Under the pieces are notes generated by a model that worked only from the letters and a program-made list of their open reading frames with translations, did no database searches and was not told the DNA's origin. The position numbers were made by a program, and so were the translations under genes. This document shows positions 7,048-64,000 of a stretch of DNA of 64,000 nucleotides, piece after piece. How positions within the stretch are numbered: the stretch's first letter is position 1; each line of letters starts with the position of its first letter. The stretch comes from Patescibacteria group bacterium (GTDB taxonomy: Bacteria > Patescibacteriota > Minisyncoccia > UBA6257 > Colwellbacteraceae), in NCBI GenBank assembly GCA_023380475.1, contig JAMCRD010000006.1, forward strand, positions 117,996-181,995, given 5' to 3'.

Positions 7048-7049
7048 CT

Positions 7050-8697: not shown

Positions 8698-8766
8698 ATA
8701 TATGATGCCCGGCCCTAGTGCAACATCTCACAGCGAGGCTGAGCAACCCGTCGGCCGGACGGGCGT

Positions 8767-8772
8767 TATAAT
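8767..8772 (+). promoter_or_regulatory. -10 box TATAAT placed 6 nt upstream of the ATG of the 8779 gene (leaderless-type promoter)
   Basis: gttTATAATagggagATG; no convincing -35. Confidence 0.3.
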
Positions 8773-8778
8773 AGGGAG

Positions 8779-16232: not shown

Positions 16233-16238
16233 TATAAT
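16233..16238 (+). promoter_or_regulatory. -10 box TATAAT 11 nt upstream of the ATG at 16250
   Basis: tgtgTATAATtgtgattgactATG; weak -35 (TTGTTC) 19 nt upstream. Confidence 0.35.
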
Positions 16239-16249
16239 TGTGATTGACT

Positions 16250-23287: not shown

Positions 23288-23725
23288 ATTACGTATCTCT
23301 TTCTGAAATTCTTGCTTTTTAAGAAACTCTCGCTTGTCAGCCTTATTTCTCGGGCGAACCAGGCCTATCTCTAGTTTGACTATGCCCAGTTTGCCGCGGG
23401 CAGTATAGATTCTGAGCGGGATAGCAGTCAACCCCTTCTCTTTTATCCGTCCTAACAGGAGGTTTATCTCTTTGCGGTTTAACAGTAGTCTGCGATCACG
23501 CTGCGGTTTATAGCTGGCAGGGGTATTCTTGGGCTGATAAGGTGGGACGTCAGCTCCAATAAGCCAGGCCTCGCCACCCCTCAGGGCGACATGGGCGCCG
23601 GCGATGTTAACCCGGCCCGACTTTATGGCTTTCACCTCGTGGCCGTGCAATTCGATACCCGCCTCAAACTTTTCCAACACGGCGTAATCGTGATAAGCCC
23701 TGCGATTGGCTGCCAATTCACTCAT
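23255..23725 (-). CDS. smpB: SsrA-binding protein SmpB
   Basis: MSELAANRRAYHDYAVLEKFEAGIELHGHEVKAIKSGRVNIAGAHVAL... canonical SmpB sequence; 3' end overlaps the tmRNA 5' end by ~33 nt. Confidence 0.9.
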   Translation of the reverse strand: MSELAANRRAYHDYAVLEKFEAGIELHGHEVKAIKSGRVNIAGAHVALRGGEAWLIGADVPPYQPKNTPASYKPQRDRRLLLNRKEINLLLGRIKEKGLTAIPLRIYTARGKLGIVKLEIGLVRPRNKADKREFLKKQEFQKEIRNGGASFDREHP

Positions 23726-23794
23726 TTAGTTAAGTATAACCTCAATTCGCGAGTTTTTGGTTTTTAGGCTCTTAGAAACTAGAATATATATGTT

Positions 23795-25510
23795 ATGTTT
23801 GAGGTTTTGAGGGATCTTATAGCGCAGGCCTCCGGGACGGATAGTTTTCAGCTGGGAGTGCCGGAGTTTGAAAAACTGGGTCATTTTATGACCAATGTCG
23901 CTTTTGCGGTTGGGAATAGAGACAAAATAGGACCGATGGAGGCCGCCCGCAGGCTGGAGAAAGAGATTCTAACCAGAAGCCCCAAGAACTTTATAGACCG
24001 CATCGACGTGGCCGCCCCTGGTTTTATAAACTTCTGGCTTACCCCCCAGGCTATCCAAACAGAGTTAAGTTTCATTTTTAAAGACAAGCAGTACGGTCTG
24101 GGCAAAAGTTGGAAAGGCAAGCGGGTGATGATCGAGTTTACCGACCCCAACCCATTCAAACTTTTTCATATCGGCCACCTGATGAGCAATACTATCGGCG
24201 AATCGTTCGCGCGGTTATTCGAGGCTGCCGGCGCCAAAGTTATCCGCGCCAACTACCAAGGCGACGTCGGTCTCCATGTGGCTAAGGCCATCTGGGGGAT
24301 GCGGCAGATGATCGAGCGCGGGGACAAAATGCCCAGTGCAGGCGACAGTCTGGTAACCAAAGTTGATTTCCTCGGCCGAGCCTACGCGCTGGGGGCTTCG
24401 GTCTACGAGGACCAAAGCGGTTCAGCGCGGCCGGAAGCCAAAGAAGAAATATTAGCGATAAACGAAAAAGTGTATTCGCGTCGCGACAAGTCGATCAATC
24501 AACTTTATGATATTGGTCGCAAGTGGAGCCTGGCTTACTTCGAGACGGTGTACAAGAAATTAGGTACGAAGTTCAACCACTACTTCTTTGAAAGCAAAGT
24601 TGGCCGGGATGGTTTGAAGTTGGTCATGGCTCACCAAGATATTTTTGAGGAGAGCCAAGGCGCCATAGTCTTCCCCGGAGAAAAGTACGGCTTGCATACG
24701 CGGGTGTTCGTTAACTCCAAAGGGCTGCCGACCTATGAAGCCAAAGAGCTTGGTCTTAACAAGAGGAAGTTCGAGCTGTACAAGCTCGATTTGTCGGCAA
24801 TAGTCACTGCCAACGAGATCAATGATTACTTCAAAGTACTGCTTAAGGTGATGAGCCTAATAATGCCGGAGGTGGCTCGAAAGACGCGCCATGTGTCACA
24901 CGGCTTTTTGCGCTTGCCCGGCGGCAAGATGTCTTCCAGGACGGGCAGTGTGATAACTGCCGAGTCGCTGATCGAGCAGGTCAAAGAGAAAATACGGGAG
25001 CGGGTTGGCCGGAACGGGGATATAAGCGGAAAAGACAAAGAAGTCATAACTGAAGCTATCGCCATTGGCGCTATAAAGTGTTCTATTTTAAGACAGAGCC
25101 CGGGTCAGGACATAATTTTTGATTTTGAGAGATCTTTATCGCTTGAAGGAGATTCGGGGCCGTACCTGCAATACGCTTTTGTCAGAGCGCTGAATATTCT
25201 TAATAAAGCGGGGAGGATCAGCAAGGTAAACTACGAACTCCTTGATAGCGGGGAAGAGCTGGCTCTGATTATGAAACTTATTGAATTTCCGACGGTTATT
25301 AAGACATGCATTGATTCTTTAGCTTCTAACGGACTTGTCACGTATCTATACGACCTTGCCAAGACGATGAATCGTTTCTATGATGCGAAAAACGTCTTGA
25401 AGGCGGAAGATAAGGTTCGCCGCGCAAGATTGGCGCTGGTCTTTGCAGCCGCCAGGACGCTTAAGACCGGTCTTGGCCTGTTGGGTATAAACACTGTGGA
25501 ACATATGTGA
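23795..25510 (+). CDS. argS: Arginine--tRNA ligase
   Basis: HIGH motif (FHIGHLMSNTIG), class I catalytic core, C-terminal DALR anticodon-binding domain. Confidence 0.9.
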   Translation: MFEVLRDLIAQASGTDSFQLGVPEFEKLGHFMTNVAFAVGNRDKIGPMEAARRLEKEILTRSPKNFIDRIDVAAPGFINFWLTPQAIQTELSFIFKDKQYGLGKSWKGKRVMIEFTDPNPFKLFHIGHLMSNTIGESFARLFEAAGAKVIRANYQGDVGLHVAKAIWGMRQMIERGDKMPSAGDSLVTKVDFLGRAYALGASVYEDQSGSARPEAKEEILAINEKVYSRRDKSINQLYDIGRKWSLAYFETVYKKLGTKFNHYFFESKVGRDGLKLVMAHQDIFEESQGAIVFPGEKYGLHTRVFVNSKGLPTYEAKELGLNKRKFELYKLDLSAIVTANEINDYFKVLLKVMSLIMPEVARKTRHVSHGFLRLPGGKMSSRTGSVITAESLIEQVKEKIRERVGRNGDISGKDKEVITEAIAIGAIKCSILRQSPGQDIIFDFERSLSLEGDSGPYLQYAFVRALNILNKAGRISKVNYELLDSGEELALIMKLIEFPTVIKTCIDSLASNGLVTYLYDLAKTMNRFYDAKNVLKAEDKVRRARLALVFAAARTLKTGLGLLGINTVEHM

Positions 25511-30323: not shown

Positions 30324-30672
30324 TTGTAGAAAGCGGGAATACGAACCTTTGTGTGCTCTGGATAATAGGAAAGATATCTAATTTCTGGGCAGCCTCAATA
30401 GGAGGAATATAATTTGGTACATAAGGGATGAATTTGTCTGGTATTTCAAAATATGTCTTGACGGCGTCATTAACCATTTCTATCAATTCCGAGAAGCTAC
30501 TTGCTTCTGTAAAGAGACCGCTGAACGTGTGAATAGTCGCCAAAAAATCGCCGTTCTCCGAACGTTCAACGCTCACCTTTATTTCACTTGGGAATAAAGC
30601 CCGATATTTATTAACTTCTTCTACTTCTCTCTTATCCATTTTTTGATGGTCATCATAGCATATGGCTAACAA
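30304..30672 (-). CDS. hicB: HicB-family antitoxin
   Basis: 122 aa, upstream of and overlapping hicA by 20 nt; N-terminal RNase-H-like HicB block (KVSVERSENGDFLATIHTFSGLFTEASSFSELIEMVNDAVKTYFE). Confidence 0.5.
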   Translation of the reverse strand: MLAICYDDHQKMDKREVEEVNKYRALFPSEIKVSVERSENGDFLATIHTFSGLFTEASSFSELIEMVNDAVKTYFEIPDKFIPYVPNYIPPIEAAQKLDIFPIIQSTQRFVFPLSTSEAQKC

Positions 30673-30752: not shown

Positions 30753-32534
30753 TTATATCTCTATGATCACCGGCAAGACCATTGGTCTGCGGAAGGTTTG
30801 AGACCAGATAAGCTGACCAATCTGATCGCGGAATACCGCCTTAAGATAGTCAGGATCAATCTGCTGGTTGTGCGGTATACGGCCCATAATGCCCTTTGTT
30901 TTTTGTCTGATTTCATCCAGAAGTTTCTGGTTGTCGCGCAGATATATGAAACCTCTCGAAACTATGTCCGGATTCTTGATCAGCCGACCAGTCTTATGGT
31001 CGATGGTTACGATCATGACCAGCATTCCTTCCTCGGCCAGCATAAGCCGATCGCGGAGGACAACTTCACCGATGTCGCCGACGCCCAGACCGTCCACCAG
31101 AACATAGTTGGCCGGTACGGTTTCCTCTGTGATAATGAAGTCGTTCTTTGTCAGGAAAGCAACTTGGCCATTGTCCATCAAACGGACATTTTGGGGCAGC
31201 AGTCCGCCGCGGACGGCGTTCTCGCCGTTGGCCGAACGCATGAAGTAATGTCCGTGCACCGGCACGAAATACCTAGGTTTAAGTATGCTTACAACCAAGG
31301 AGATATCGTCCGCTGGAGCATGGCCGCTAGCGTGAATGTCTATCAAGCTGGACGTATACACCCTGGTTTTTTGTCTGGCTATGTTGTCCTTGAGATTTTG
31401 GACACTCCTTTCGTTGCCAGGAATAACTGATGAAGAGAAGATAACCGTGTCGCCCGGCTTGAGATGAATGTGCCTGTGCTCGCCGCTAATTATTCTCATC
31501 AAGCCCGCGCTGGATTCTCCTTGGGCACCGGTAGTGAGTATCAGTATCTTGTCGTCCTTATACTTCGAGACCTCCTCAGTTGTGATTAAAGTTCCTTTCT
31601 TAGCCTTCAGATATCCGAGGTTTTGGGCTATCTGGACGTTATCTTTCATCGAGCGGCCGTTGATAACCACCTTTCGATCCAGCCTTTCGGCGATTTTGAT
31701 CATCTCGGCGATACGAGTGAGCATTGAAGAAAAAGTGGCGACGATGATGCGTCCACTGGCTTCCTTGAACAAAGCCTCCAGATTTTTCTCGACCGTACGT
31801 TCGGATATGCTGTGGCCGGGCTCCTCGGCATTGGTGCTGTCGCACAAGAAGGTATGCACACCTTGTTTGCCTACGGCGGCTATCACATCCAAACCGTTGG
31901 GCTTGCCATCAGCAGTGTAATCGATACGAAAGTCGCCGAAGTGAACAATGTTCCCAATCGGGGTTTTGATTATGACTCCCACTGAGTCGGGGATGGTGTG
32001 TTCGATATTGAAGAACTCCAGTTCGAAGTATTTACCAACCTTAACTTTATCGCCGTGAGAGACACTGATAACGTTCAATTTAGGAGCGTTCACAAATTCT
32101 TCCTGCCGCTTCTCAATGATTGCTTTCGTCAGCTTTGCGGTATAGATGGTCGGATTGCCAACTTTGCCTATAAGGTAGGGGATCGCACCGATGTGATCGT
32201 AGTGGCCGTGAGTTAAGACCACGGCTTTAACGTTGTTCTTGCGCGGTTCGATATAACTCACGTTGGGAATAATGTAATCAATCCCGGGCGTATCTTCCTC
32301 GGGGAACTGGAAGCCCATATCGATTATTATCATCTCGTCCTTGTACTCGAGCAGGCTCATATTTCTCCCTATTTCCTCCATCCCCCCCAAGGGAATGAGG
32401 CGTAGAGTGTCATCTGGTGTAGGTTTAACCTTCTTAGAGGTTTCCGTTGTCTGTCCTTCTGGTTTTACATGCGGCGACAAGCGGACAGTGCGTGTTCGTG
32501 GCATGTTTGGATTGCGTCTTATGCGCGGTGTCAT
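30753..32534 (-). CDS. rnj: Ribonuclease J (metallo-beta-lactamase/beta-CASP)
   Basis: VLTHGHYDHIGAIPYL motif, beta-CASP region, ~50-aa basic N-terminal extension. Confidence 0.9.
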   Translation of the reverse strand: MTPRIRRNPNMPRTRTVRLSPHVKPEGQTTETSKKVKPTPDDTLRLIPLGGMEEIGRNMSLLEYKDEMIIIDMGFQFPEEDTPGIDYIIPNVSYIEPRKNNVKAVVLTHGHYDHIGAIPYLIGKVGNPTIYTAKLTKAIIEKRQEEFVNAPKLNVISVSHGDKVKVGKYFELEFFNIEHTIPDSVGVIIKTPIGNIVHFGDFRIDYTADGKPNGLDVIAAVGKQGVHTFLCDSTNAEEPGHSISERTVEKNLEALFKEASGRIIVATFSSMLTRIAEMIKIAERLDRKVVINGRSMKDNVQIAQNLGYLKAKKGTLITTEEVSKYKDDKILILTTGAQGESSAGLMRIISGEHRHIHLKPGDTVIFSSSVIPGNERSVQNLKDNIARQKTRVYTSSLIDIHASGHAPADDISLVVSILKPRYFVPVHGHYFMRSANGENAVRGGLLPQNVRLMDNGQVAFLTKNDFIITEETVPANYVLVDGLGVGDIGEVVLRDRLMLAEEGMLVMIVTIDHKTGRLIKNPDIVSRGFIYLRDNQKLLDEIRQKTKGIMGRIPHNQQIDPDYLKAVFRDQIGQLIWSQTFRRPMVLPVIIEI

Positions 32535-32560
32535 TTTTATTTGATTTTATTGTTTATTAG

Positions 32561-36487: not shown

Positions 36488-38029
36488 TCAGACAAGTAGT
36501 TTCAGCAGACTTACGCCGCTCATCTCGGCTGGCTGGGGCAGGCCTAGGATCTCAAGGATGGACGGGGCAACGTCGGATAGGACGCCGGCACTCTCTTTTT
36601 CTCCACTTTCGACGTCAAAATCGTCGCGGAGGCGTTCCCAATCTTTGGCAACTATATATATAGGTACGGGGCTGTCGTCGTGCTTAGTCTCGATCACCCC
36701 CGTTAGTGGATCGATCATCCGCTCGATATTACCATGATCTGATGTTACGACCATGACCGCCCCGGTGGCGTAGACGGCCTTGACCAACTCAGCGATTTGG
36801 GAATCGACGACCTCAATCGCTTTAAGGGCCGCATCAAAGTTGCCGGTATGGGCCATTAAGTCAGGGTTGGCGTAATTGATGAGGATAAAATCGTAAACGC
36901 GCTCGCTTATAGCCGAGATGGCTCGGGCGGTTATCTCTGGAGCCATGAGTTCGGGGAACTCCTCCGGCCGGGCGGTGGTGCGGGAGGGGATAACGGCCCG
37001 ATATTCGTTTTTGAAGGGGGGCTCGCGATAACCATTGAAGTAGTAAGTCACATGGGCGTACCGCTCCGATTCTGCCAGCCGCAGTTGTACCCGCCCGTTG
37101 TCCGAAAGCACCTTGCCGAGGGGGTTGTCGATAACTTCCTGCGGGAAGGCCACCGGTAGGGAGAATTTTTGGCTATAGTTTGTGAAAGTGGTTAGTAAAA
37201 CATCCGGCAATTCGGCATTTACGAACATTTCGGTCAGCTGACGCATGCTGTCCTCCCGGAAATTAAAGAAAATAGCGCTGTCGCCTTTTTGGATCGTTCC
37301 ATCCTCGAGCAATAAGGCCGGCTCGACGAACTCATCGGTCAGTCCACCGGCATAAAAACTGGTAATGTATTGCGCGGCATTTTTGCCAGTCGGACGATTT
37401 GCCGCCGGCGAACCGGTTAGGGCGTTATAGGCTTTTTCGGTCCGGTCGGTATGGAAGTCCCGATCCATAGCGAAGTACCTGCCGCAAACGCTGGCGATCC
37501 TCAATCCCGGGTTGTCAGCCAAAAGTTTATTCAAAAGGTCTATCGCGCTTTTGGGAGGGCTGTCGATGCCATCGGTGAACAGATGCAGATTCAGGCGTTC
37601 GTTGGCGATGCCTTCGCTCTTGACCAAGCGGACGAGGGCTTGCAGATGTTCCATGGATGAGTGAACGTGTCCGCTCGATAAGAGACCGACCAGATGGATG
37701 CGTGAATTGTTGTCTGTGCCGTGGCGCAAGGCTGCCAGCAACATCGGATTTTTATAGAAAGTCCCGTTCCTGATTGCCAGGGTTATACGGGGGAAAGACT
37801 GGTAGATGACTCGCCCGGCGCCCAAGGTAAGGTGCCCGACTTCGGAATTACCCTCTTCTTCCCACGGGAGCCCAACCGCTATGCCGGACGCTTGGAGCGA
37901 TCCGCTGTAGTGGTTGTGTTTTATCCAGTCAATTGTTGGCGGCTTGGCTATGTGGATTGGGTTGGATCCGTCTTTGCGTCCGATGCCCCATCCATCCAAG
38001 ATCACCATAACAACCGTCCGACGATTCAT
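36488..38029 (-). CDS. gpmI: 2,3-bisphosphoglycerate-independent phosphoglycerate mutase
   Basis: VMVILDGWGIG, NSEVGHLTLGAGR, TSDHGN motifs of iPGM; an AGGAG Shine-Dalgarno ~11 nt upstream (one of the few in the window). Confidence 0.95.
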   Translation of the reverse strand: MNRRTVVMVILDGWGIGRKDGSNPIHIAKPPTIDWIKHNHYSGSLQASGIAVGLPWEEEGNSEVGHLTLGAGRVIYQSFPRITLAIRNGTFYKNPMLLAALRHGTDNNSRIHLVGLLSSGHVHSSMEHLQALVRLVKSEGIANERLNLHLFTDGIDSPPKSAIDLLNKLLADNPGLRIASVCGRYFAMDRDFHTDRTEKAYNALTGSPAANRPTGKNAAQYITSFYAGGLTDEFVEPALLLEDGTIQKGDSAIFFNFREDSMRQLTEMFVNAELPDVLLTTFTNYSQKFSLPVAFPQEVIDNPLGKVLSDNGRVQLRLAESERYAHVTYYFNGYREPPFKNEYRAVIPSRTTARPEEFPELMAPEITARAISAISERVYDFILINYANPDLMAHTGNFDAALKAIEVVDSQIAELVKAVYATGAVMVVTSDHGNIERMIDPLTGVIETKHDDSPVPIYIVAKDWERLRDDFDVESGEKESAGVLSDVAPSILEILGLPQPAEMSGVSLLKLLV

Positions 38030-38127
38030 CGACCATATTTTATGCTCCTATGTTGTTTTAGTCATTCGGCAGGAGCGGGCGATAGTTATTTGACACTATT
38101 GCCGAGTTAGCCATATTCTTCCCCTCG

Positions 38128-42692: not shown

Positions 42693-42716
42693 TAGGATAA
42701 GCAGCCATTATATAAT
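42688..42716 (+). promoter_or_regulatory. Sigma70-like promoter TTGTTT-17-TATAAT ending 6 nt before the ATG at 42723 (leaderless-type)
   Basis: ttgtttaggataagcagccattaTATAATcagctcATG. Confidence 0.45.
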
Positions 42717-42722
42717 CAGCTC

Positions 42723-43586
42723 ATGAAAGAAAGTAAAAATTTGGATCAAAATATAGAGGAAGGAAACAAATCGGAAATTGAAGTAGTGGACGTGCTGGTG
42801 GAGGAACAGGCAAAACCGAATTCTTCGGCTAGGACAAATAAGTTCTTGGCGATAAGTATCCTAGTGGCAGCTTTACTGATCTGTGGAACCTTGCTTTACG
42901 TTTTCAATCCTATGAGATCCAACAGCAATGTGACTGGGCAGCCTACTTCTGCGGCGGCCACGGCTAGTACAACCACCATAACTATTCCTAACTTTGCGAC
43001 GAGCTTGCCGTATCCGCAGACCAGGGAGGGCAACGAAGTGGTTTTAGGCAACCCAAAGGCACCGGTGCAAATAGTGGAATACGGAGATTACCAATGCACG
43101 TTCTGCAATCTATACTTTAACCAGACCGAGCCCCTTATAAGGCAGGACTATGTTGCCTCAGGTAAAGTTAGCGAAGTGTTCAAAAATCTTGTGGTTATAG
43201 ATAACTTTGTCCCGGGCGGGCACGAATCGGCCGACGCTGCCCTGGCTGCGAGTTGCGCCATGGACCAGAATAAGTTTTGGGAATACCACGATGCCATTTA
43301 TACATTCAAAACCGCTAACCCTGGAGAAAACGCCGGCGACCTTACCAGGGACATCTTTACCCAGATAGCGACAAAGTTGGGGATGAACGTGGGTCAGTTC
43401 ACGAGTTGTTTCGATTCGAAGAAATACAGCAGCCTTATCGCCAGCGATATGAAAGAAGCCACCTCGCTTTTCTCCCAAGTGGCCACCCCGAGCTTCGTGA
43501 TAAACGGTCAGACGGTGCAGGGAGCGGAGCCTTTCAGCACTTTCCAGACGATAATAGACGCGGTGCTTAAAAAAGCCGGCCAATAA
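42723..43586 (+). CDS. DsbA-family thiol:disulfide oxidoreductase, membrane-anchored/secreted
   Basis: N-terminal TM anchor; thioredoxin-fold CxxC (YGDYQCTFCNLYF); DsbA-like helical insertion. Confidence 0.75.
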   Translation: MKESKNLDQNIEEGNKSEIEVVDVLVEEQAKPNSSARTNKFLAISILVAALLICGTLLYVFNPMRSNSNVTGQPTSAAATASTTTITIPNFATSLPYPQTREGNEVVLGNPKAPVQIVEYGDYQCTFCNLYFNQTEPLIRQDYVASGKVSEVFKNLVVIDNFVPGGHESADAALAASCAMDQNKFWEYHDAIYTFKTANPGENAGDLTRDIFTQIATKLGMNVGQFTSCFDSKKYSSLIASDMKEATSLFSQVATPSFVINGQTVQGAEPFSTFQTIIDAVLKKAGQ

Positions 43587-44065: not shown

Positions 44066-44124
44066 TAACGGCAGTTGACCAAAGCAAGCACTCCTTCAAT
44101 AGGAGCGCTTGCGGTTAAAGGGAT

Positions 44125-44130
44125 ATAATA
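44125..44130 (+). promoter_or_regulatory. -10 box TATAAT 5 nt upstream of the ATG at 44136
   Basis: gggaTATAATaagacgATG. Confidence 0.3.
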
Positions 44131-44135
44131 AGACG

Positions 44136-45059
44136 ATGAACTATGAATTGGTTATTGTGGGCGGCGGTCCGGCCGGAGTGGCGGCTGGGGTTTACGCCGA
44201 GCGCAAGAAAATAAGGACGTTGCTGGTCGCCGAGTCGTTCGGTGGACAGTCGATCGTCTCCGGAGAGATAAGAAATTGGATCGGAACCAAGTCGATATCC
44301 GGTTTAGAGTTGGCTAAAGCGCTTGAAGAGCACCTCAAAGCTCACCAGGATATAGATATTCTGGAAGGCGAGCGCGTTGCCAAGATTTCCAGAGCCGATG
44401 GCGGATTTCAAATTGAGACTTCCGGCGGCAAAGTTTTCGGGGCCAAGACCATAATGATGGCAAGCGGTAGCCGCCGCCGACGCTTAGCTATTCCGGGCGA
44501 GGATAAGTTTGATGGCCACGGCGTTTCGTACTGTTCGATTTGTGACGCCCCGCTTTTCAAAAATAAGAATGTGGCCGTGGTGGGCGGAGGCAACTCAGCT
44601 TTGGAAGCGGTGGTTGATTTGTTGCCGTATGCCAGCAACATTTATTTGTTGCAGCACAGCGCTGCACTGAAGGGCGATCAGGTGACACAGGATAGGATAG
44701 CGAAGGAACCGAAAGTTAAAACCTGCCTTAATGCCGAAACAAAAGAAATTGTCGGCGACGATATGGTCAAAAGTCTCAAGTATCAGGACAATGTTACCAA
44801 GGAGATTAAGGAACTAGCGGTGGACGGCGTTTTTGTGGAGATAGGCATAGTCCCCAATTCGGAATTAGTTAAAGACCTAGTGCAGCTTAATCCATTGGGC
44901 GAGATTGTGGTTGACCAAAAGACTCAGCAGTCTTCGCTGGAGGGCATTTGGGCAGCCGGGGATGTAGGCGACGCGCTATATAAGCAGAACAATATATCCG
45001 CGGGCGACGCCATTAAGGCTATACTTAGCATCTACACCTATCTGAACAAGTCTAAATAG
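44136..45059 (+). CDS. trxB: Thioredoxin-disulfide reductase
   Basis: VIVGGGPAG FAD motif, redox-active CSICD, second Rossmann VAVVGGGNSALE. The track ORF starts at TTG 44109, but ATG 44136 gives the canonical M-x-Y-[ED]-hhIhGGGPAG N-terminus. Confidence 0.85.
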   Translation: MNYELVIVGGGPAGVAAGVYAERKKIRTLLVAESFGGQSIVSGEIRNWIGTKSISGLELAKALEEHLKAHQDIDILEGERVAKISRADGGFQIETSGGKVFGAKTIMMASGSRRRRLAIPGEDKFDGHGVSYCSICDAPLFKNKNVAVVGGGNSALEAVVDLLPYASNIYLLQHSAALKGDQVTQDRIAKEPKVKTCLNAETKEIVGDDMVKSLKYQDNVTKEIKELAVDGVFVEIGIVPNSELVKDLVQLNPLGEIVVDQKTQQSSLEGIWAAGDVGDALYKQNNISAGDAIKAILSIYTYLNKSK

Positions 45060-45528: not shown

Positions 45529-46032
45529 ATGCACCGCAGAGCCATGACAGCAACAATCCTGACTATAGTTATCCTATTGATCTTGGGAGGGGCGGCCTAT
45601 TATCTATGGACGATAGGACATGCCGGTCATGCCGGAGCCCAGCCTTCCTTGCCCACCGTCAGCGCGGTTATAGGCGGGCAGCAATTTGAGCTGGAGGTGG
45701 CCAGCACCACTGCCGAACAGAATTGGGGGCTGTCGGGACGGATCAGTCTCGGTGGCAACGACGGCATGCTTTTCTTGTTTAGCGTCCCCGGCCCGCGTTT
45801 CTTCTGGATGAAAGACATGAATTTTGACATAGATTTGATATGGATCCGCGGTGACAAAGTAATAGGATTTTTGCAGGGATTGCCCACGCCGGCTGCTTTG
45901 CATGCCACCAGCACGATCAATCTGCCGATATATGTGTCGCCTGGGTTGGTGGATAAGGTCATAGAGATAAATTCTGGCGAGATAGCTAAATTGGGTCTGA
46001 AAGTAGGTGATACTATCCGAATAAACATTTGA
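45529..46032 (+). CDS. DUF192 domain protein, membrane-anchored
   Basis: N-terminal TM helix; MKDMNFDIDLIWIRGDKVIG matches the DUF192 core. Start placed at the ATG after the upstream stop, since the track start 45475 overlaps the previous gene. Confidence 0.65.
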   Translation: MHRRAMTATILTIVILLILGGAAYYLWTIGHAGHAGAQPSLPTVSAVIGGQQFELEVASTTAEQNWGLSGRISLGGNDGMLFLFSVPGPRFFWMKDMNFDIDLIWIRGDKVIGFLQGLPTPAALHATSTINLPIYVSPGLVDKVIEINSGEIAKLGLKVGDTIRINI

Positions 46033-46058
46033 GACTTACGTGAGGATGGTCGTATAAT
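46029..46058 (+). promoter_or_regulatory. Sigma70-like promoter TTGAGA-18-TATAAT, 8 nt upstream of the gap ATG
   Basis: TTGAGActtacgtgaggatggtcgTATAATttattgaaATG. Confidence 0.45.
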
Positions 46059-46066
46059 TTATTGAA

Positions 46067-47086
46067 ATGGCAAAAATAGCAATAAATGGTTTCGGTAGAA
46101 TAGGTCGCTTGTTCTTCAAGCAGGCTTTTGGCCAGCCTGGCTTGGACATAGTGGCGGTCAACGATCTAGGTGACGTCGAGAATCTGGCTTATCTCCTGAA
46201 GTACGACACGGTTTATGGGAAGTATGACAAGAGCGTTGCAACTCAGGCCGGAAAACTTATCGTCGACGGGAAGGAGATAGCGTTTTTGCAGATTAAGGAT
46301 CCGACTCAATTGCCATGGAAGGCCATGGGTGTAGACGTCGTCGTGGAATCAACCGGCATTTTCGAGGAATACGAAAAGGCAAAAGTTCACTTGCAGGCTG
46401 GAGCTAAGCGAGTTGTTATCACGGCGCCGGCCAAGGATCCGGATGGCACCGAAGGCAAGACAGTCCTAATGGGAGTAAACGAAGACGAAGCCAAAGGCGT
46501 GGTTATAACTTCCAACGGTTCATGCACCACCAACGCTTCATCGCCGGTTATCCAGATAATGTCGGAGAATCCGGGAATAGTTAAAGCGATACTTAATACG
46601 GTTCACGGCTATACCGCGACGCAGTCGATAGTTGACGGCCCGGTAAGGGGCGGCCACGATATGCGCCGTGGCCGCGCTGCGGCGCAGAACATAGTTCCCT
46701 CAACGACCGGAGCGGCGATAGCTGTCACTAGAGCTATCAAGGATCTGGTTGGGAAGTTCGATGGTATGGCTATGCGGGTACCGGTCGTATCTGGTTCCAT
46801 CGCTGATATTACTTTCATAGCAAAACGTAAAACTTCAGTTGAAGAGATAAATAACATATTCAAAGCTGCGGCCGAGTCGCCGCGGTGGAAGGGTATCTTA
46901 GGGGTGACTGAGGACCAGGTGGTCTCATCCGACATCTTAGGTGAACCCTACGGTGCTATCGTCGACCTCGGGTTTACGAAGGTAGTCGACGGCGATATGG
47001 TCAAAGTGCTTTCCTGGTACGATAACGAGGCCGGTTATGTGAGTACTTTGGTCAAGCACGTTCAAAGAGTGGCGCAACTTGTATAA
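46067..47086 (+). CDS. gap: Glyceraldehyde-3-phosphate dehydrogenase
   Basis: INGFGRIGR NAD-binding N-terminus, active-site SCTTN, full-length conservation. Confidence 0.95.
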   Translation: MAKIAINGFGRIGRLFFKQAFGQPGLDIVAVNDLGDVENLAYLLKYDTVYGKYDKSVATQAGKLIVDGKEIAFLQIKDPTQLPWKAMGVDVVVESTGIFEEYEKAKVHLQAGAKRVVITAPAKDPDGTEGKTVLMGVNEDEAKGVVITSNGSCTTNASSPVIQIMSENPGIVKAILNTVHGYTATQSIVDGPVRGGHDMRRGRAAAQNIVPSTTGAAIAVTRAIKDLVGKFDGMAMRVPVVSGSIADITFIAKRKTSVEEINNIFKAAAESPRWKGILGVTEDQVVSSDILGEPYGAIVDLGFTKVVDGDMVKVLSWYDNEAGYVSTLVKHVQRVAQLV

Positions 47087-47883
47087 TGACCGAAAAAGAT
47101 GGTTCATCTCCCAGACTTATCCCGATCGGATCATTGTTGCGCCGAAGCTGGCACAGATACAATCGGCAATTTGATACATTAATCTGGATACCGGTCCTGC
47201 CATCGCTGGCTGTAGCCCTAGCTTCCTATCTAGGCTTATTCAGCGGCGGGCTGGCGGGGACCTTGGCCATCGGGGTTAACATCATCGGTTTTGTACTATC
47301 GCTCTTGGCGGCGCTGGCACTTACTTACGCTGCCCAGAACGATAAACAGTTCGGCGAGAGTTATTGGTATGCGTTGGGTAACTTGCTGCCGTATTTCTGG
47401 GTGTATGTGCTGTCGCTGGCATTGATGAGCGGTGGCCTATTTCTTTTGATCATCCCTGCAGCCGTTTTGGCGGTCTGGCTGGCGTTTACGGAATACGTGT
47501 TCGTGGTGGAAGGCGCTCGCGGCCTGAGTGCTCTGCTTAAATCTAAGGAGTACGTCCGTGGTCGCTTTTGGCCGGTTGTCCTTAGACTGCTGGCGGCACT
47601 GCTGATTGGAATGATCGTATCCTTGGTGGCTGATGCCATCGGGCGCCTTGGCGGGCCGTCGGGATTGATAGCGGCCAACCTGCTGATCGGGATATTGCTG
47701 CCGCCGTTTCTGGTGATATATATGCTGGAGATATATGGGGACCTACGGCAGCTCCGCCCAGAAGTGGCCGGCACCGAGGTCCGGCGCAGCCGGGGGTGGT
47801 TCGTGGGAACCGCGATCTGGGGAGTGGCAGCTGCAGCTTTGTTTATCCTGATTGTGGCTTCGGGCTATCTGGGGCGGTTATAA
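47086..47883 (+). CDS. Hypothetical polytopic membrane protein
   Basis: 265 aa, ~6 TM helices, no recognisable catalytic motifs. Confidence 0.4.
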   Translation: MTEKDGSSPRLIPIGSLLRRSWHRYNRQFDTLIWIPVLPSLAVALASYLGLFSGGLAGTLAIGVNIIGFVLSLLAALALTYAAQNDKQFGESYWYALGNLLPYFWVYVLSLALMSGGLFLLIIPAAVLAVWLAFTEYVFVVEGARGLSALLKSKEYVRGRFWPVVLRLLAALLIGMIVSLVADAIGRLGGPSGLIAANLLIGILLPPFLVIYMLEIYGDLRQLRPEVAGTEVRRSRGWFVGTAIWGVAAAALFILIVASGYLGRL

Positions 47884-47893
47884 TAAGGAATCC

Positions 47894-48355
47894 ATGATCA
47901 TATATATAGGTGCGGATCATCGCGGCTTTCAATTGAAAGAAGCCATAAAAGAGTATGTTAAGAATCTGGGCTATCAGGTTTCTGATTTGGGCAATTCTGC
48001 CTACGACGAGAACGACGACTATCCTGGCTTTTCAGCGGCGGTGGCTGAGAAGGTCAGCGCCGATCCGACCGGTAGCCGAGGCATAGTTATTTGTGGTTCG
48101 GGCGTAGGGGTGGATGTGGTAGCCAACAAATTCAGGGGGGTAAGATCGGCTTTGGCTTTTTCTACCGACCAAGCGGGTGCCTCGCGAGCGGATGACGATA
48201 CCAACGTCTTAGCTCTGCCGGCCGACTTCTTGGATTTGGATACGTCTAAAAAAATTGTGAGCATTTGGTTGCAGACCCCCATATCCACCGATCCCCGCTA
48301 TAAACGCCGCTTGGAGGAGGTAAGGGCATTGGAACAAAAATTAAAGAACCAATAA
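47894..48355 (+). CDS. rpiB: Ribose-5-phosphate isomerase B
   Basis: MIIYIGADHRGFQLKE...GIVICGSGVGVDVVANK RpiB/LacAB family motifs; start at the ATG after the upstream stop. Confidence 0.85.
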   Translation: MIIYIGADHRGFQLKEAIKEYVKNLGYQVSDLGNSAYDENDDYPGFSAAVAEKVSADPTGSRGIVICGSGVGVDVVANKFRGVRSALAFSTDQAGASRADDDTNVLALPADFLDLDTSKKIVSIWLQTPISTDPRYKRRLEEVRALEQKLKNQ

Positions 48356-48991: not shown

Positions 48992-49021
48992 ATTTTCTTA
49001 TTTTGGATACAGTCGTATCCA

Positions 49022-49055
49022 TTGACGTAATGCCTCCGCAACCCTGTGATATAAT
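49022..49055 (+). promoter_or_regulatory. Promoter TTGACG-22-TGaTATAAT (extended -10), 8 nt upstream of the transketolase ATG
   Basis: aTTGACGtaatgcctccgcaaccctgTGaTATAATcaaatcacATG. Confidence 0.45.
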
Positions 49056-49063
49056 CAAATCAC

Positions 49064-49921
49064 ATGGTATTAAACGATGATAAGTTGCAGTCTCTTCGTG
49101 ACACAGCCGTTAAAATTAGGGAAACGATAATCGAGACTCTTATTGAAGCCGGATCCGGACATTCCGCCGGACCAATGGGCATGGCGGATGTGTTCACCGC
49201 TTTTTATTTTCACATCCTGAATCATGATCCCAAGAAACCGGATTGGCCGGATCGGGATCGGCTGATTCTCTCCAACGGTCACATCTGCCCGGTGCTCTAT
49301 GTCACTTTAGCCTATTCCGGATACTTCCCGATGGAGGAGTTGAAAACGCTGCGTAAACTGAATTCGCGGTTACAAGGCCACCCTCACCGCAAGTCACCGC
49401 CGGGCATTGAAACAACTTCCGGTCCGCTTGGTTCAGGACTAAGCCAAGCCATCGGCATGGCTCTTGCGGCCCGGCTCGATAAGGCAAAATACAGAATTTA
49501 CTGCCTGACCTCAGACGGCGAACACGACGAAGGGAATACTTGGGAAGCGATAATGTTTGCCGGTAAGAACAAGTTGTCTAACCTCACAGTGGTCATCGAT
49601 CGCAATAATATCCAGATAGACGGTTTTACGGAGAACGTCATGCCTTTGGAACCACTTAAGCAAAAATACGAGTCATTTGGTTGGCAGGTGCTGGAAATAG
49701 ACGGGCACAACTTTAACGCCATCATCGATGCTGTAAATGAGGCCAAGGCTATACATGAAAAGCCCACCGTTATAATTGCCCATACCATCCCGGGCAAGGG
49801 GGTGAGTTTTATGGAGAACGATTACTTGTGGCATGGTAAACCGCCGACGAGAGAAGAAGGTGAAAAAGCTTTGAAGGAGCTGCGGACTCTTCAAGGCAAA
49901 ATAGAATCAGAACATCAATGA
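49064..49921 (+). CDS. tkt: Transketolase, N-terminal (TPP pyrophosphate-binding) subunit
   Basis: GSGHSAGPMGMADV, GDGEHDEGNTWEA (TPP-binding GDG motif); split-gene arrangement. Confidence 0.9.
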   Translation: MVLNDDKLQSLRDTAVKIRETIIETLIEAGSGHSAGPMGMADVFTAFYFHILNHDPKKPDWPDRDRLILSNGHICPVLYVTLAYSGYFPMEELKTLRKLNSRLQGHPHRKSPPGIETTSGPLGSGLSQAIGMALAARLDKAKYRIYCLTSDGEHDEGNTWEAIMFAGKNKLSNLTVVIDRNNIQIDGFTENVMPLEPLKQKYESFGWQVLEIDGHNFNAIIDAVNEAKAIHEKPTVIIAHTIPGKGVSFMENDYLWHGKPPTREEGEKALKELRTLQGKIESEHQ

Positions 49922-54797: not shown

Positions 54798-54889
54798 CGC
54801 AAGGACCCCGATAATTTTAAGGCTGACGCAACGGGTGTCGTGAAATGCTGCCTTGGCGTAGTCGCCAGCTGGTAATAGAATATCTTTAG

Positions 54890-56314
54890 ATGAGGCTGAA
54901 ACCTCGTACAATTTATGACGTTAAACCCAGTGGCGCGGATGTTTTCGTCCCAAGTAAGCGGATAGTCAATCTCAGCCGGGTTAAATATTTTGCGGCGCAC
55001 GGACAGCGTAAGCTTGTTGTGTTGCTCGCGGTTATCTTGCCGCTCCTGTTCCTTACCTCTGTGGGCGCCCCGGTTACGACTGGTAGTACCTCCGCTACAG
55101 CCGGTTCGACTGATGTCCAGCGTCAGGCTCTCGAAGCTCAGTTGCAGCAGCTTGAAAGCCAGATTGCAGGTTACGAAACAACGATTTCCAATTATCAAAA
55201 GCAGGGTAAAAGCTTGACCACGGAGATAAATACGCTAAATGCCAACATCGCCAAGATCAACCTGCAGATAAGGGCTATAAATATTTCTTTGGATGAATTG
55301 AACGGAGAAATTAAAGATACGAATTCACAGATAAGCGTGACGGAGAGCAACATCAATGCCGGCAAACTCAGTTTGGCCAGTGCCTTGCAGGATATGTATG
55401 AGAATGACAACCAGAATTTGGCTGAGATTCTTTTGGCCCACCCGCAACTGTCTGATTTCTTCGACAACGTGAACAACCTTGATCTACTGCAAGAAAACGT
55501 CCAGGTAGCCATCACCAACCTTGCGGCGATGGAAACCACTCTTCAGAATCAGAAGCAGGAATTGGGTGTAAAGTTGTCTGATGAAGCGACACTTAAGGCC
55601 TATCAAGCCCAACAAGCTACAGCTCTGCGGTCGACTAAGACAGACAAAACAAGCCTTCTCGCTGAGACCAAGGGTCAAGAAGCGGCCTATCAGAAAATAC
55701 TGGCTACCACTCAACAGACAGCTGCCCAGATCCGTAACCAGATATTCCAGTTGTTGGGCGGCGGCACGCTAACTTTCGAAAAGGCTTATGAGTATGCAGC
55801 AGCCGCTCAAAGCGCGACCGGAGTCAGGGCCGCTTTCTTGCTAGCCGTCTTGGATCGCGAGTCGGCTTTGGGACAGAACGTCGGCCAGTGCAGCTACAAA
55901 ACGGCCATGAGCCCCAGCAACATACCAATATTTCTGCAGATAACCAAAGCCCTCGGACTAGATCCGAACGAAATGTTAGTTTCCTGCCCCAACGCTGACG
56001 GAGTATACGGCGGTGCCATGGGTCCGGCGCAATTTATACCGTCGACGTGGAAACTTTATACCAGTGCTGTTTCCAATATCACAGGCAACAACCCGGCGTC
56101 GCCGTGGAGCGATGCGGATGCTTTTACGGCGGCGGCACTGTATCTCAAAGACGCTGGTGCAGCTACCAATGAGCAGAAAGCCGCGGCAGAGTATTACTGT
56201 GGGTCAAACTGGAACCGCTACGTCTGCACCCAAGTTTACGGTCTGAACGTTATTGAGCAAGCCGATCAATTCCAGCAGGATATAAACGTGCTGAACAGTA
56301 ATTCGACAGGCTAG
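54890..56314 (+). CDS. Secreted coiled-coil protein with C-terminal lytic transglycosylase (MltB/Slt35-like) domain
   Basis: N-terminal anchor, ~250-aa coiled-coil (QLQQLESQIAGYETTISNYQKQGKSL...), then LAVLDRESALGQNVGQCSY (catalytic E-S) and GGAMGPAQFIPSTW (G-x-M-G-x-x-Q-F-x-P-S-T-W signature). Confidence 0.7.
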   Translation: MRLKPRTIYDVKPSGADVFVPSKRIVNLSRVKYFAAHGQRKLVVLLAVILPLLFLTSVGAPVTTGSTSATAGSTDVQRQALEAQLQQLESQIAGYETTISNYQKQGKSLTTEINTLNANIAKINLQIRAINISLDELNGEIKDTNSQISVTESNINAGKLSLASALQDMYENDNQNLAEILLAHPQLSDFFDNVNNLDLLQENVQVAITNLAAMETTLQNQKQELGVKLSDEATLKAYQAQQATALRSTKTDKTSLLAETKGQEAAYQKILATTQQTAAQIRNQIFQLLGGGTLTFEKAYEYAAAAQSATGVRAAFLLAVLDRESALGQNVGQCSYKTAMSPSNIPIFLQITKALGLDPNEMLVSCPNADGVYGGAMGPAQFIPSTWKLYTSAVSNITGNNPASPWSDADAFTAAALYLKDAGAATNEQKAAAEYYCGSNWNRYVCTQVYGLNVIEQADQFQQDINVLNSNSTG

Positions 56315-57092: not shown

Positions 57093-57365
57093 CTACTTAT
57101 GTTTCTTGGCTTTGGCCTTTGCGGTCGCGCGCCTGATTTTCTTTTTGGGTGCCGGTTCAGCTACAGCCTTGGAACGTCTTGAGGCGAAACGTTCGATTCT
57201 TCCAGCAGTGTCGATCAGTTTCTCCTTACCGGTATAAAAAGGATGGCAGTTGCTGCATATTTCAACCTGAAGTTCTGACTTAGTCGAGCCGACGGTGAAT
57301 TCATAGCCGCAAGCACAGCGAACCTTGGCTTTAGGATAGTAGGTTGGATGTATTTTCTCCTTCAT
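57093..57365 (-). CDS. rpmE: 50S ribosomal protein L31 with Lys/Ala-rich C-terminal extension
   Basis: [23 protein letters not shown]...[11 protein letters not shown] (zinc-ribbon type A L31). Confidence 0.9.
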
Positions 57366-57395
57366 TGCGCCTTAGGTTACCATCGGTGCCAGAGT

Positions 57396-57584: not shown

Positions 57585-59928
<2,344 letters not shown>

Positions 59929-60118
59929 TAAAGAACGAATCTGACATTTGTCAGATAAGGTTTTGGTCGAGGAGCCATTCAAGTCTCGACTCCTTCCGAG
60001 TAATTCGGATTGTATGGCTTTGGGATAACTAAAAAGTTTTCTATTCTATGTTCTCAACCTGACTATCTAGCAGACAGGATTGAGTCTGATAAACATTTTG
60101 TGCTAGTATTGAAGTAAC

Positions 60119-60508
60119 ATGGCGTTAAACAAGACAGTGATGGTGGTCGAAGACGACCAATTCTTGTCGCAATTGTTGAGCAACCGTTTAGGCCGCGAAG
60201 GCCTGAATGTTATTCGTGCTGGCGATGGGCAGGAAGCCTTGGATCTGCTTGGGGCCAACCAGCCGGATCTGATCCTGTTGGATTTGATTCTCCCTAAGAA
60301 GTCAGGTTTCGAGGTGATGGAGGAGATACAAAAGAATCCCCTGCTTAAGAATGCGCCGATCGTTATAATCTCCAACTTGGGGCAGGACGATGATATATCC
60401 CGCGGTAAGCAGTTGGGAGCTATCGAGTACTATGTTAAGGCAAAGATATCTATTGAAGATCTGGTAAGTAAGATCGAGCAGCTTCTAACCTCAAGCCGTG
60501 CGGCTTGA
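60119..60508 (+). CDS. Stand-alone response-regulator receiver domain protein (CheY-like)
   Basis: VMVVEDDQFL...DLILLDLILPKKSGFEV...PIVIISNLGQ (phospho-acceptor Asp in LLDL, T/S and K positions conserved); a TAGTAT -10-like box 9 nt upstream of the ATG. Confidence 0.8.
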   Translation: MALNKTVMVVEDDQFLSQLLSNRLGREGLNVIRAGDGQEALDLLGANQPDLILLDLILPKKSGFEVMEEIQKNPLLKNAPIVIISNLGQDDDISRGKQLGAIEYYVKAKISIEDLVSKIEQLLTSSRAA

Positions 60509-63077: not shown

Positions 63078-64000
63078 TGAGATTTCACTACGTAGCGTCA
63101 CAACCTAACGGACGGATTATGGAAGCGGATGTCGAGGCGCAAAGCCCCTCTGATGTCTTGACTTGGATGGCTACGCAGGGCCTGCGTCCTGTGTCGCTGA
63201 AAGCAGTAGGAGGACTTCAAGCCACCGGCATCCGAAAGATCTTCGGGGCATCTATTACCGTTGAAGACCAGGTTTTCCTGACAAAATATCTAGCGCTGAT
63301 GCTTAAGGTCGGGACGGACCTGTTCAAAGCGATAGATATTTTGATAGCGGACTTCGACAAGCCGGTGATGAAGGCCTTGCTCATTGAGATCCGAGACAAC
63401 CTTGGTAAGGGCCAGCCGTTTTACTCGACATTCGCCAAATACCCCAAATTCTTTTCTCCTGTTTTTGTAAACCTGATACGGGCCGGGGAAAAATCGGGCA
63501 ATCTGGAAAAAGTGTTCGATGATCTGAGTGTAGGTTTGGAAAAGGACGCCGAACTGCGCGGAAGCATAAAAGGAGCCTTGATTTATCCGACCATCTTGGT
63601 GTGTATGGCCATACTTATAATTTTGGGCATGGTGACGTTTGCCCTGCCCAAAATCGCCCAGAGTTTCAGTGGCAACGGCATAACCCCCCCAGCTTTCTCG
63701 GCCGCGGTTTTCGCCGTCGGCCTGTTCATAGGCGGCAACGTGGTTTACATATTGACGATTTTGGCCGCTCTAGTGGTCGGGGGGATATTTTTCTTCCGCA
63801 GCGATTTGGGAAAGCTGGTTTTTAACCGGATGGTGTCCCGAATCCCGGTAATCAATGAGGTAATCCACCGCATCGCATTGCAGCGTTTTGCTTCGACCTT
63901 GTCGTCTCTGATGAAAGCCGGCATGCCTATAATTGAATCTATCGAGATAGCAGCTGAAGCAGGCGGCTCGGCGGATATGAAGGCAGCCTTGTTACGGATA
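63077..64000 (+). CDS. pilC: Type IV pilus platform protein PilC (GspF family), 5' portion; runs off the window end
   Basis: My own translation from ATG 63077: MRFHYVASQPNGRIMEADVEAQSPSDVLTWMATQGLRPVS...; first GspF repeat and TM helices present; open to position 64000. Confidence 0.8.
   Translation, partial: MRFHYVASQPNGRIMEADVEAQSPSDVLTWMATQGLRPVSLKAVGGLQATGIRKIFGASITVEDQVFLTKYLALMLKVGTDLFKAIDILIADFDKPVMKALLIEIRDNLGKGQPFYSTFAKYPKFFSPVFVNLIRAGEKSGNLEKVFDDLSVGLEKDAELRGSIKGALIYPTILVCMAILIILGMVTFALPKIAQSFSGNGITPPAFSAAVFAVGLFIGGNVVYILTILAALVVGGIFFFRSDLGKLVFNRMVSRIPVINEVIHRIALQRFASTLSSLMKAGMPIIESIEIAAEAGGSADMKAALLRI

Follow-up and report, generated by a model that had tools for sequence, protein, structure and literature searches.

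How does a ribosome find its start codon when the promoter ends only a few nucleotides before the gene begins? The question is raised by the gene for the N-terminal subunit of transketolase at position 49064 of a 64-kb stretch of bacterial DNA, referred to here as the window, where a TATAAT box lies 8 nt upstream of the ATG. An earlier note made from the letters of the window, the original prediction, had seen the same arrangement in front of many genes together with hardly any Shine–Dalgarno (SD) sequences, and had proposed that leaderless initiation is the dominant mode in this organism. Our analysis confirms that the close association of boxes and ATGs is real and lies far beyond chance. 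Judging from sequence features, the likely explanation is that the genome of an ultra-small bacterium of the Candidate Phyla Radiation (CPR) has given up pairing between SD and anti-SD sequences, and that the first genes of its operons are largely leaderless, with a sigma70-type extended -10 element next to the ATG.

The promoter of the transketolase gene

The region that raised the question contains three elements:

49022..49027, forward strand: TTGACG, resembling a -35 hexamer, separated from the -10 hexamer by 22 nt
49047..49055, forward strand: TGaTATAAT, an extended -10 element, with an 8-nt spacer to the ATG at 49064
49064..49921, forward strand: coding sequence of the transketolase N-terminal subunit, predicted to be leaderless or to have a 1–2 nt leader

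Because a spacer of 22 nt exceeds what a working -35 element allows, the credible element of this promoter is the TGn extended -10. A position weight matrix (PWM) for the -10 box, trained on other CPR loci only and then applied to the window, scores it at 14.5 bits, above every control ATG (1654 ATGs in the window that are not starts). As to the start codon, Pfam Transketolase_N aligns residues 16–266 of the product with profile positions 7–268, and orthologue matches begin at query residues 1–3 in nearly all of the 80 related loci described below. Between the rpe stop (48991) and TTGACG, a perfect 7-bp inverted repeat (TGGATAC-agtc-GTATCCA; 49004–49021, forward strand) might serve as the binding site of a regulator or, although it lacks a U-tract, as a terminator stem.

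The window and its relatives

The window has a G+C content of ~50% and tightly packed genes, and its RNA genes are one 16S rRNA, a tmRNA, and one tRNA. We called 57 genes from open reading frames (ORFs), taking as the start the first ATG at most 15 codons from the first start codon of the ORF; this caller is crude and favours the first ATG. Relatives were collected by scanning a genome collection with the transketolase subunit, which returned 80 loci with 70–83% amino acid identity. Those that carry taxon labels are mostly metagenome-assembled genomes (MAGs) of Patescibacteria/CPR, labelled Colwellbacteria, Jorgensenbacteria, Wolfebacteria, Liptonbacteria, Paceibacteria, Minisyncoccia, Collierbacteria, Levyibacteriota, and others, while many are labelled just “bacterium” or “uncultured Gammaproteobacteria”, and one “Nanoarchaeota”. 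The top transketolase matches (80–83%) come from MAGs labelled Colwellbacteria, Saccharibacteria, and “bacterium”, with further top hits in Jorgensenbacteria, Paceibacteria, and Minisyncoccia. On the basis of this one protein and of MAG labels, which are unreliable, the organism is a CPR bacterium, most likely of the Parcubacteria type. A search for contigs that encode the transketolase subunit yielded only a 3.7-kb Logan contig (SRR10278331) and no larger genome. For pooled counts, the window was combined with 79 CPR loci to give 1226 genes, again from crude calls.

A -10 box lies at a fixed distance from many start codons

Exact TATAAT hexamers are found 6–11 nt before 7 of the 57 window starts, where the control ATGs predict 0.14. 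When five or more of the six positions are required to match, always including A2 and T6, a box lies at 6–9 nt in 13 of the 57 genes compared to 0.8% of controls (odds ratio 37, p=1e-13), with no enrichment in window genes at the control distance of 20–23 nt. The CPR-trained PWM identifies 16 of the 57 genes at p≤0.02, against 1.1 expected. The pattern also emerges independently of annotation: 9 of the 29 TATAAT hexamers on the two strands of the window have an ATG 6–11 nt downstream as the start of an ORF of at least 117 codons, and this test revealed two further cases, at 2470 and 63629. All eight box-and-start examples cited in the original prediction are present where it placed them, except that the spacer at 44136 is 6 nt long (AAGACG) and not 5.

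In the pooled set, the distance between box and start begins sharply at 6 nt, with 87 boxes against 5.7 expected, and continues with 47, 39, and 39 at 7, 8, and 9 nt; counts are modest at other distances and near background below 6 nt. Conversely, ATG occurs 49, 49, 34, and 26 times at offsets 6–9 after 971 exact TATAAT hexamers, against a background of 9–17, and the majority stand at the head of long ORFs. The counts of GTG and TTG after the same hexamers are flat, in keeping with the original expectation that leaderless genes should start with ATG (with the exception of infC, see below). A -10 hexamer that ends 6 nt before the ATG places the A at the usual +1 position, so that the geometry fits leaderless transcription as originally proposed.

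The boxes also have the surroundings of promoters. Alignment of 211 proximal boxes gives T (0.51) and G (0.54) at positions -3 and -2 relative to the box, i.e., the TGn of an extended -10 element, and an enrichment of T, T, and G at -23 to -21, corresponding to a -35 element at 17-nt spacing; neither set of positions was used in selecting the boxes. In the pooled set, a box precedes only 4.8% of overlapping or abutting genes, which is near background and includes no exact match, compared to 31% of genes with a gap of 13–25 nt, where there is room for a -10 element and its spacer. In the window, boxes are found on 16–17 of ~30 operon-first genes and on 2 of 24 internal genes. The TGn and -35 features, the dependence on gap length, and the bias towards first genes point to a sigma70-type promoter rather than a general ribosome-binding motif.

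Some exact intergenic TATAAT hexamers have no ATG at leaderless distance (8101–8106 on the forward strand, 39018–39025 on both strands, and 30752–30757 and 21657–21662 on the reverse strand). These could be promoters of leadered mRNAs, of small RNAs, or of small unannotated ORFs.

The called starts agree with protein profiles

Pfam and NCBIfam profiles align from residues 1–7 of the called proteins. Expressed as the residue at which the alignment begins and the corresponding profile position, the onsets are 3 and 2 for GAPDH, 4 and 2 for the TrxB-like protein, 3 and 1 for RpiB, 5 and 2 for SmpB, 5 and 1 for DUF763, 5 and 2 for iPGM, and 7 and 1 for the receiver domain. The original prediction had named SD-preceded ATGs further downstream as a finding that would speak against it. 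None is present in frame within the first 40 codons of the 17 leaderless-type genes that we checked, and the sole SD-like 4-mer matches in that range precede TTG at codons 25, 32, and 40. One start, initially called at 2443, was probably wrong, and its correction to 2470 adds another TATAAT-6-ATG.

SD sequences and the anti-SD are both missing

The 4-mers AGGA, GGAG, and GAGG occur at -18 to -4 of 4 of the 57 window genes (7%) compared to 10.3% of control ATGs, and AGGAG or GGAGG occurs in that range in none of the 57, which bears out the near-absence of SD sequences originally noted. Duplex energies with the canonical anti-SD are no better for window starts than for controls. Enrichment of SD sequences was found in no gene class (first, internal, or leadered), nor in loci labelled Parcubacteria or Microgenomates, nor in the closest relatives by IF3. 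The same code detects SD sequences at 46% of starts versus 6% in 50 kb of Escherichia coli, and at 43–60% versus 5–12% in several non-CPR metagenome contigs. Upstream regions are A-rich and G-poor in all gene classes.

The ribosomal counterpart has been lost as well, as the original prediction had suspected:

59915..59929, forward strand: 3' tail of the 16S rRNA after splicing of a group I intron, GGAACACTTACATTT replacing GGATCACCTCCTTT; it contains no CCUCC, and the anti-SD is thus absent

With the intron (~59529–59884) removed, the 3' end reads GAAGTCGT joined to AACAAGGCACGGGTAGCGGAAGCTGTTCGTGGAACACTTACATTT, and helix 45 and its GGAA loop are intact. Locus L012, where the end of the 16S gene is uninterrupted, has GGAATTATTAAATTT, likewise without CCUCC; the terminal GGAUcACCUCCUUu of the Rfam model for small-subunit rRNA aligns with GGAAUUAUUAAAUU of L012. 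The uninterrupted 16S end at ~19787–19840 of L066 (Candidatus Microgenomatus sp.) has the tail GGATCTAGTACACTT and also lacks CCUCC. Since this locus carries a Microgenomates-type label, loss of the anti-SD may extend beyond the Parcubacteria subgroup.

A replacement SD complementary to the organism's own tail (ACUUACAUUU) was considered and rejected, because neither this complementarity nor the corresponding duplex energies are enriched upstream of window genes. The sequence AAGGAGGAA, ~42–50 nt upstream of the ATG at 39318, was also rejected as an SD, as it is not followed by a start codon at the distance of an SD.

Two insertions interrupt the 16S gene (57579–59929, forward strand) close to its 3' end. 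The first, of ~405 nt (~59009–59414), follows GTACTCACA at about E. coli position 1400 and has no Rfam match. The second is the group I intron, with an Rfam hit at 59523–59875 and an end at ~59884, which lies between AAGTCGT and AACAAGG. No 23S gene follows the 16S gene, and protein genes resume at 60119.

First and internal genes of operons

A manual census assigned ~30 window genes to the first position of an operon, and 16–17 of these have a strong proximal box of the leaderless type: 2470, 2401 (reverse strand), infC, 8779, 16250, smpB, argS, 30639 (reverse strand), rnj, gpmI, 42723, 44136, 46067, 49064, 54890, 60119, and 63629. About four further genes are weaker candidates, namely rpmE, 38128 (with a perfect TTGACA), and 36443 and 35802 on the reverse strand. 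About nine first genes have SD-less leaders of 7–45 nt, three of them with predicted leaders of 7–10 nt (80, 21679, and pilB) and ~6 with leaders of at least 20 nt (atpB, 21537 and 30075 on the reverse strand, 39318, 54135, and 60617). The 24 operon-internal genes among the 57 lie at -17 to +10 nt relative to the stop of the preceding gene, with the exception of a crudely called pair recorded with a 50-nt overlap; in the pooled set, the commonest spacings of internal genes are -4 (ATGA), +1, -1, and 0. Two internal promoters of the proximal -10 type, both situated within the upstream gene, precede the NUDIX gene at 7050 and rpiB at 47894. In addition to the promoters of the transketolase gene and infC, the following sites were identified, where “PWM” marks detection by the CPR-trained matrix:

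2458..2472, forward strand: TATAAT-6-ATG (2470), gene for a 117-residue hypothetical protein
2399..2417, reverse strand: UDG gene, ATG at 2401, with AATAAT at 7 nt or TAAAAT at 10 nt (PWM, p=0.0018)
7037..7052, forward strand: TGtTAAAAT-7-ATG (7050), NUDIX gene; the promoter lies within the 3' end of the upstream polX (PWM, p=0.0006)
8767..8781, forward strand: TATAAT-6-ATG (8779), DUF763 gene
16233..16252, forward strand: TGtgTATAAT-11-ATG (16250), predicted leader of ~4 nt (PWM)
23723..23738, reverse strand: TATACT-7-ATG (23725), smpB (PWM)
23780..23797, forward strand: TAGAAT-9-ATG (23795), argS (PWM)
30637..30657, reverse strand: TATGAT-12-ATG (30639), gene for a hypothetical protein (PWM)
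32532..32549, reverse strand: TAAAAT-9-ATG (32534), RNase J gene, just downstream of tRNA-Leu (PWM)
38027..38042, reverse strand: TAAAAT-7-ATG (38029), gpmI; AGGAG at -20 to -16 lies inside the promoter spacer (PWM)
42711..42725, forward strand: TTGTTT-17-TATAAT-6-ATG (42723), DsbA-like thioredoxin gene (PWM)
44124..44138, forward strand: TATAAT-6-ATG (44136), thioredoxin-reductase-like gene (PWM)
46029..46069, forward strand: TTGAGA-18-TATAAT-8-ATG (46067), GAPDH gene (11/12 promoter match)
47879..47896, forward strand: TATAAT-9-ATG (47894), rpiB; internal promoter, 10 nt after the upstream gene (PWM)
54876..54892, forward strand: TAGAAT-8-ATG (54890), gene for an SLT-domain protein (PWM and two-hexamer scan)
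57363..57379, reverse strand: TTGTCA-17-TAACCT-8-ATG (57365), rpmE (L31), weak candidate (PWM, p=0.048)
60104..60121, forward strand: TGcTAGTAT-9-ATG (60119), response regulator gene (PWM)
63616..63631, forward strand: TATAAT-7-ATG (63629); the ORF continues past the end of the window

The AGGAG of gpmI had been read as an SD at -11, but it is too far from the ATG, and the gene instead carries the proximal box given above. The 12-mer TATAATAAGACG occurs twice on the forward strand, at 44124–44135 with the ATG of the trxB-like gene directly after it, and at 60575–60586, where it is followed by TAA and a ~30-nt leader before the ORF at 60617. The 3' end of smpB (23255–23725) and the 5' end of the tmRNA gene (22947–23287) share ~33 nt, and as both genes are on the reverse strand, their co-transcription from the TATACT-7-ATG promoter is probable. 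The tag peptide of the tmRNA is ANYKVAAPALALA.

infC appears to share this layout with a non-AUG start

The gene for IF3 appears to follow the leaderless layout with a start other than AUG:

8686..8723, reverse strand: infC promoter and start, with TTGCAC (8723–8718), a 17-nt spacer, TATATT (8700–8695), a 6-nt spacer, and ATA (8688–8686); predicted to be leaderless

The first canonical start of the infC ORF is GTG 8640, but the preceding 16 codons encode IENFVLNNQIGAKELR, in agreement with the IF3 profile, and TIGR00168 aligns from residue 5 if translation starts at ATA 8688. No ATG, GTG, or TTG is present in this frame from GTG 8640 back to the in-frame TGA at 8730. infC was not found in the 80 transketolase-bearing loci, and we therefore used a metagenome scan with the IF3 of the window, which gave 13 unique close sequences including that of the window (at least 44% identity). 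Ten of the 13 lack a canonical in-frame start before the conserved N-terminus. In seven (the window and 6 of its 12 relatives), TANNNT lies exactly 6 nt before an in-frame ATA, ATC, or ATT at the aligned N-terminus: ATA in the window, ATC in L086, L087, L088, L091, and L093, and ATT in L100. An eighth, L095, has TACACT-7-ATC. The original prediction had regarded infC as an exception that carries a leader, which these findings do not bear out.

As in E. coli, infC here has no canonical start codon and uses AUA, AUC, or AUU (AUH). The AUU start of E. coli infC is preceded by a normal SD leader, whereas here the AUH lies 6 nt after a -10 box, which predicts a leaderless mRNA. Since IF3 acts against both non-canonical start codons and leaderless initiation (PMC9031893), its autoregulation of infC could be retained.

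A model for initiation and its alternatives

We envisage that an extended -10 element (TGnTATAAT, with a weak -35) 6–9 nt, and up to 12 nt, upstream of the ATG drives about half or more of the first genes. If RNA polymerase starts ~7 nt after the -10 hexamer, these mRNAs would begin at the A of the AUG or 1–5 nt before it, and they would be translated by 70S/IF2–fMet-tRNA binding at the 5'-terminal AUG. Downstream cistrons overlap the upstream stop or begin at most ~12 nt from it, with A/U-rich and G-poor upstream sequences, and would probably be reached through termination–reinitiation or 70S scanning, and probably not by de novo SD-guided binding of 30S subunits. A minority of first genes would use the SD-less leaders described above, and infC would share the leaderless layout with its AUA/AUC/AUU start, which could preserve IF3 autoregulation. 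The proposed dominance of leaderless initiation thus holds for first cistrons (~16–21 of ~30), but neither for the internal genes (~24 of 57), which cannot be leaderless and are probably coupled or re-initiated, nor for the leadered first genes; independence from SD sequences holds for all genes.

Several points weigh against this model. We infer leaderless transcription itself from promoter geometry, the position of the transcription start site (TSS) being extrapolated from the distance between -10 element and TSS of E. coli-type promoters, and boxes at 9–12 nt would give leaders of 2–5 nt, which are not strictly zero. The -35 signal at proximal boxes is weak. A strict two-hexamer sigma70 scan gives 15 sites in the window versus 15.7 in shuffled sequences, and it caught just two of the promoter sites described here (46029 and 54853), although such a scan is uninformative for promoters with weak -35 elements. 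The mechanism that probably applies to internal cistrons is read from their spacing alone. The leaderless-type share of ~55% comes from a manual census of one 64-kb window, and only 17% of the genes classed as heads of operons in the pooled set, with its crude gene calls, have a box matching at five of six positions.

How else might the pattern arise? The promoters may be real while transcription starts elsewhere, either because the RNA polymerase of CPR bacteria has a different distance between -10 element and TSS or because upstream promoters dominate. The mRNAs would then have short or ordinary SD-less 5' untranslated regions, and, as in Bacteroidetes, these unstructured A/U-rich leaders would serve for initiation by 30S/S1 standby binding or by 70S scanning. 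The several boxes at 9–12 nt and the A-rich, G-poor upstream regions of all gene classes are compatible with this alternative, and because the ~9 leadered first genes require SD-less leadered initiation, such a mechanism must exist in the cell. However, the distance distribution begins abruptly and peaks at 6 nt, the enrichment of ATG only is expected for recognition of a 5'-terminal start and not for leadered SD-less initiation, and leaderless genes verified by experiment in Mycobacterium and Deinococcus are defined by this geometry (PMC6028130). A displaced TSS is therefore unlikely in our view.

We find it still harder to accept a role for UAUAAU in the mRNA rather than as a promoter, where it would serve as a non-SD motif for ribosome binding or enhancement in leaders of the GeneMarkS-2 group B type. 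Group B genomes do carry A/T-rich non-SD motifs (PMC6028130), and the box precedes some operon-internal genes of the pooled set (10.6% at gaps of -8 to 12 nt, in crude calls). Against this stand the TG at -3/-2 and the TTG 17 nt upstream, which are sigma70 features at the DNA level, and the scarcity of the box where genes abut and at internal genes of the window; moreover, the box has no complementarity to the organism's own 16S tail and, unlike a general ribosome-binding site (RBS), is missing from most genes. That the pattern is an artefact, caused by chance matches in A/T-rich intergenic DNA or by mis-called starts with true SD-preceded starts downstream, strikes us as highly improbable. 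The bias of the gene caller and the mis-called start at 2443 would favour such an explanation, but chance is excluded by the control ATGs, the control distance, and the annotation-free test, while the alignment of profile hidden Markov models from residues 1–7 and the lack of SD-preceded alternative ATGs speak against wrong starts, and the single mis-call, once corrected, yielded one more case.

Relation to known systems

Leaderless first cistrons, as favoured here, are known from other bacteria. In GeneMarkS-2 group C, a Pribnow box 6–8 nt (about -10) from the start of operon-first genes is the signature of leaderless transcription, and it has been checked against differential RNA sequencing in Mycobacterium and Deinococcus (PMC6028130). 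In group C, 25–60% of transcripts are leaderless and start with a 5'-terminal AUG (PMC6028130, PMC9031893), and the range for leaderless-rich Actinobacteria and Deinococcus is 20–60%. The window shares the short, fixed distance between Pribnow box and start at first genes, and the strong preference for ATG after the box, with group C (Mycobacterium, Streptomyces, Corynebacterium, and Deinococcus), but group C retains the anti-SD and SD sites for internal and leadered genes, whereas the window has neither, and no SD-type RBS is found at its remaining genes. CPR is not named among the group C taxa (PMC6028130). Bacteroidetes mostly combine leadered mRNAs with a non-SD motif that precedes every gene (PMC6028130). 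The box in the window differs in that it is not common to first and internal genes and in that it carries TGn and -35 features.

Bacteria lacking an anti-SD are reportedly the subject of a 2012 study by Lim. According to the survey by Amin et al. (2018, PMC6107228), this loss is rare (128 of ~20,000 taxa, mostly some Flavobacteriia, Mycoplasma, and Carsonella) and goes with absence of SD sequences; the Flavobacteriia concerned include Chryseobacterium, Elizabethkingia, and Blattabacterium. These organisms resemble the window in lacking both the anti-SD and SD motifs, but they belong to other phyla, and the passages of that survey considered here identify no alternative initiation mechanism for them (PMC6107228). 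Closer to the window, the loss is already published for a subgroup of Parcubacteria: Tsurumaki et al. (2022, RNA 28:1041; PMC9297842) detected CCUCCU in only 48% of Parcubacteria 16S genes and concluded that formation of SD helices is improbable. The ribosomal protein uL1 is also missing from this subgroup; the window does not contain the ribosomal protein cluster. The window shares both the radiation and the rRNA feature. The study covers rRNA and ribosomal proteins, and a term search of its text found leaderless mRNAs nowhere mentioned and no analysis of SD usage or promoter-to-start distances. Era, which binds GAUCACCUCC, has been lost in most CPR bacteria (PMC10582724), and a 2025 paper in Nucleic Acids Research uses 188 TSSs from RNA sequencing of the CPR bacterium Nanosynbacter lyticus (PMC12641261). 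We found no description of a leaderless architecture in CPR in the searchable literature, which did not extend to subscription journals. What is new here would thus be a known kind of initiation regime in a new lineage, with two twists, namely the complete lack of SD sequences and a predicted leaderless AUH infC.

The latter layout is unusual for bacteria. The small-subunit rRNA of mammalian mitochondria also lacks an anti-SD (PMC10582724), and mitochondrial mRNAs resemble the predicted leaderless AUA/AUC/AUU infC of the window (PMC11775629), although mitochondria are organelles with processed polycistronic transcripts, no sigma70 promoters, and the specialised factors IF2mt and IF3mt. Tentatively, and as something possible rather than probable, we suggest that a large part of CPR, of both Parcubacteria and Microgenomates type, has replaced SD-guided initiation with leaderless first cistrons, coupled later ones, and a leaderless AUA/AUC/AUU infC used for IF3 autoregulation. 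This would imply mitochondria-like initiation by CPR ribosomes at 5'-terminal non-AUG codons, for which we found no description for free bacterial ribosomes in the searchable literature.

A large share of bacterial diversity belongs to CPR/Patescibacteria, whose gene expression is experimentally almost unexplored. If first cistrons are leaderless and SD sequences absent, the start codons assigned to thousands of CPR MAGs by SD-trained gene finders should be re-examined, and heterologous expression and genetic tools for CPR would need ATGs that abut promoters rather than RBS cassettes. The published loss of the anti-SD, and that of Era, would gain a counterpart on the mRNA side, and leaderless initiation in mitochondria and archaea could be compared with that of a bacterial group, CPR. 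For start-codon selection, the leaderless AUH start predicted for infC offers a specific hypothesis that can be tested.

Other features of the window

The release factor ORF at 56322–57050 (reverse strand) encodes an RF1-like protein of 242 residues that aligns with positions 104–340 of the 347-position prfA profile and lacks ~100 N-terminal residues (domain 1). We had considered this ORF and the one just upstream (57093–57365) as a prfB frameshift site, and hence as a test of SD-dependent frameshifting, but dropped the idea, as the upstream ORF is rpmE (L31) and not a release factor fragment, and the factor is RF1. TGA is a rare stop codon, used by 2 of 24 long ORFs. The isoleucyl-tRNA-synthetase-like protein encoded at 25514–29035 (forward strand; 1173 residues) has a His_Phos_1 histidine-phosphatase domain at residues 501–663 that splits the tRNA-synt_1 catalytic domain. 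Finally, a free-standing ORF at 32634–33287 (reverse strand) has a weak match to LAGLIDADG_3, and its 3' end overlaps tRNA-Leu(CAG) (32560–32643) by ~10 nt.

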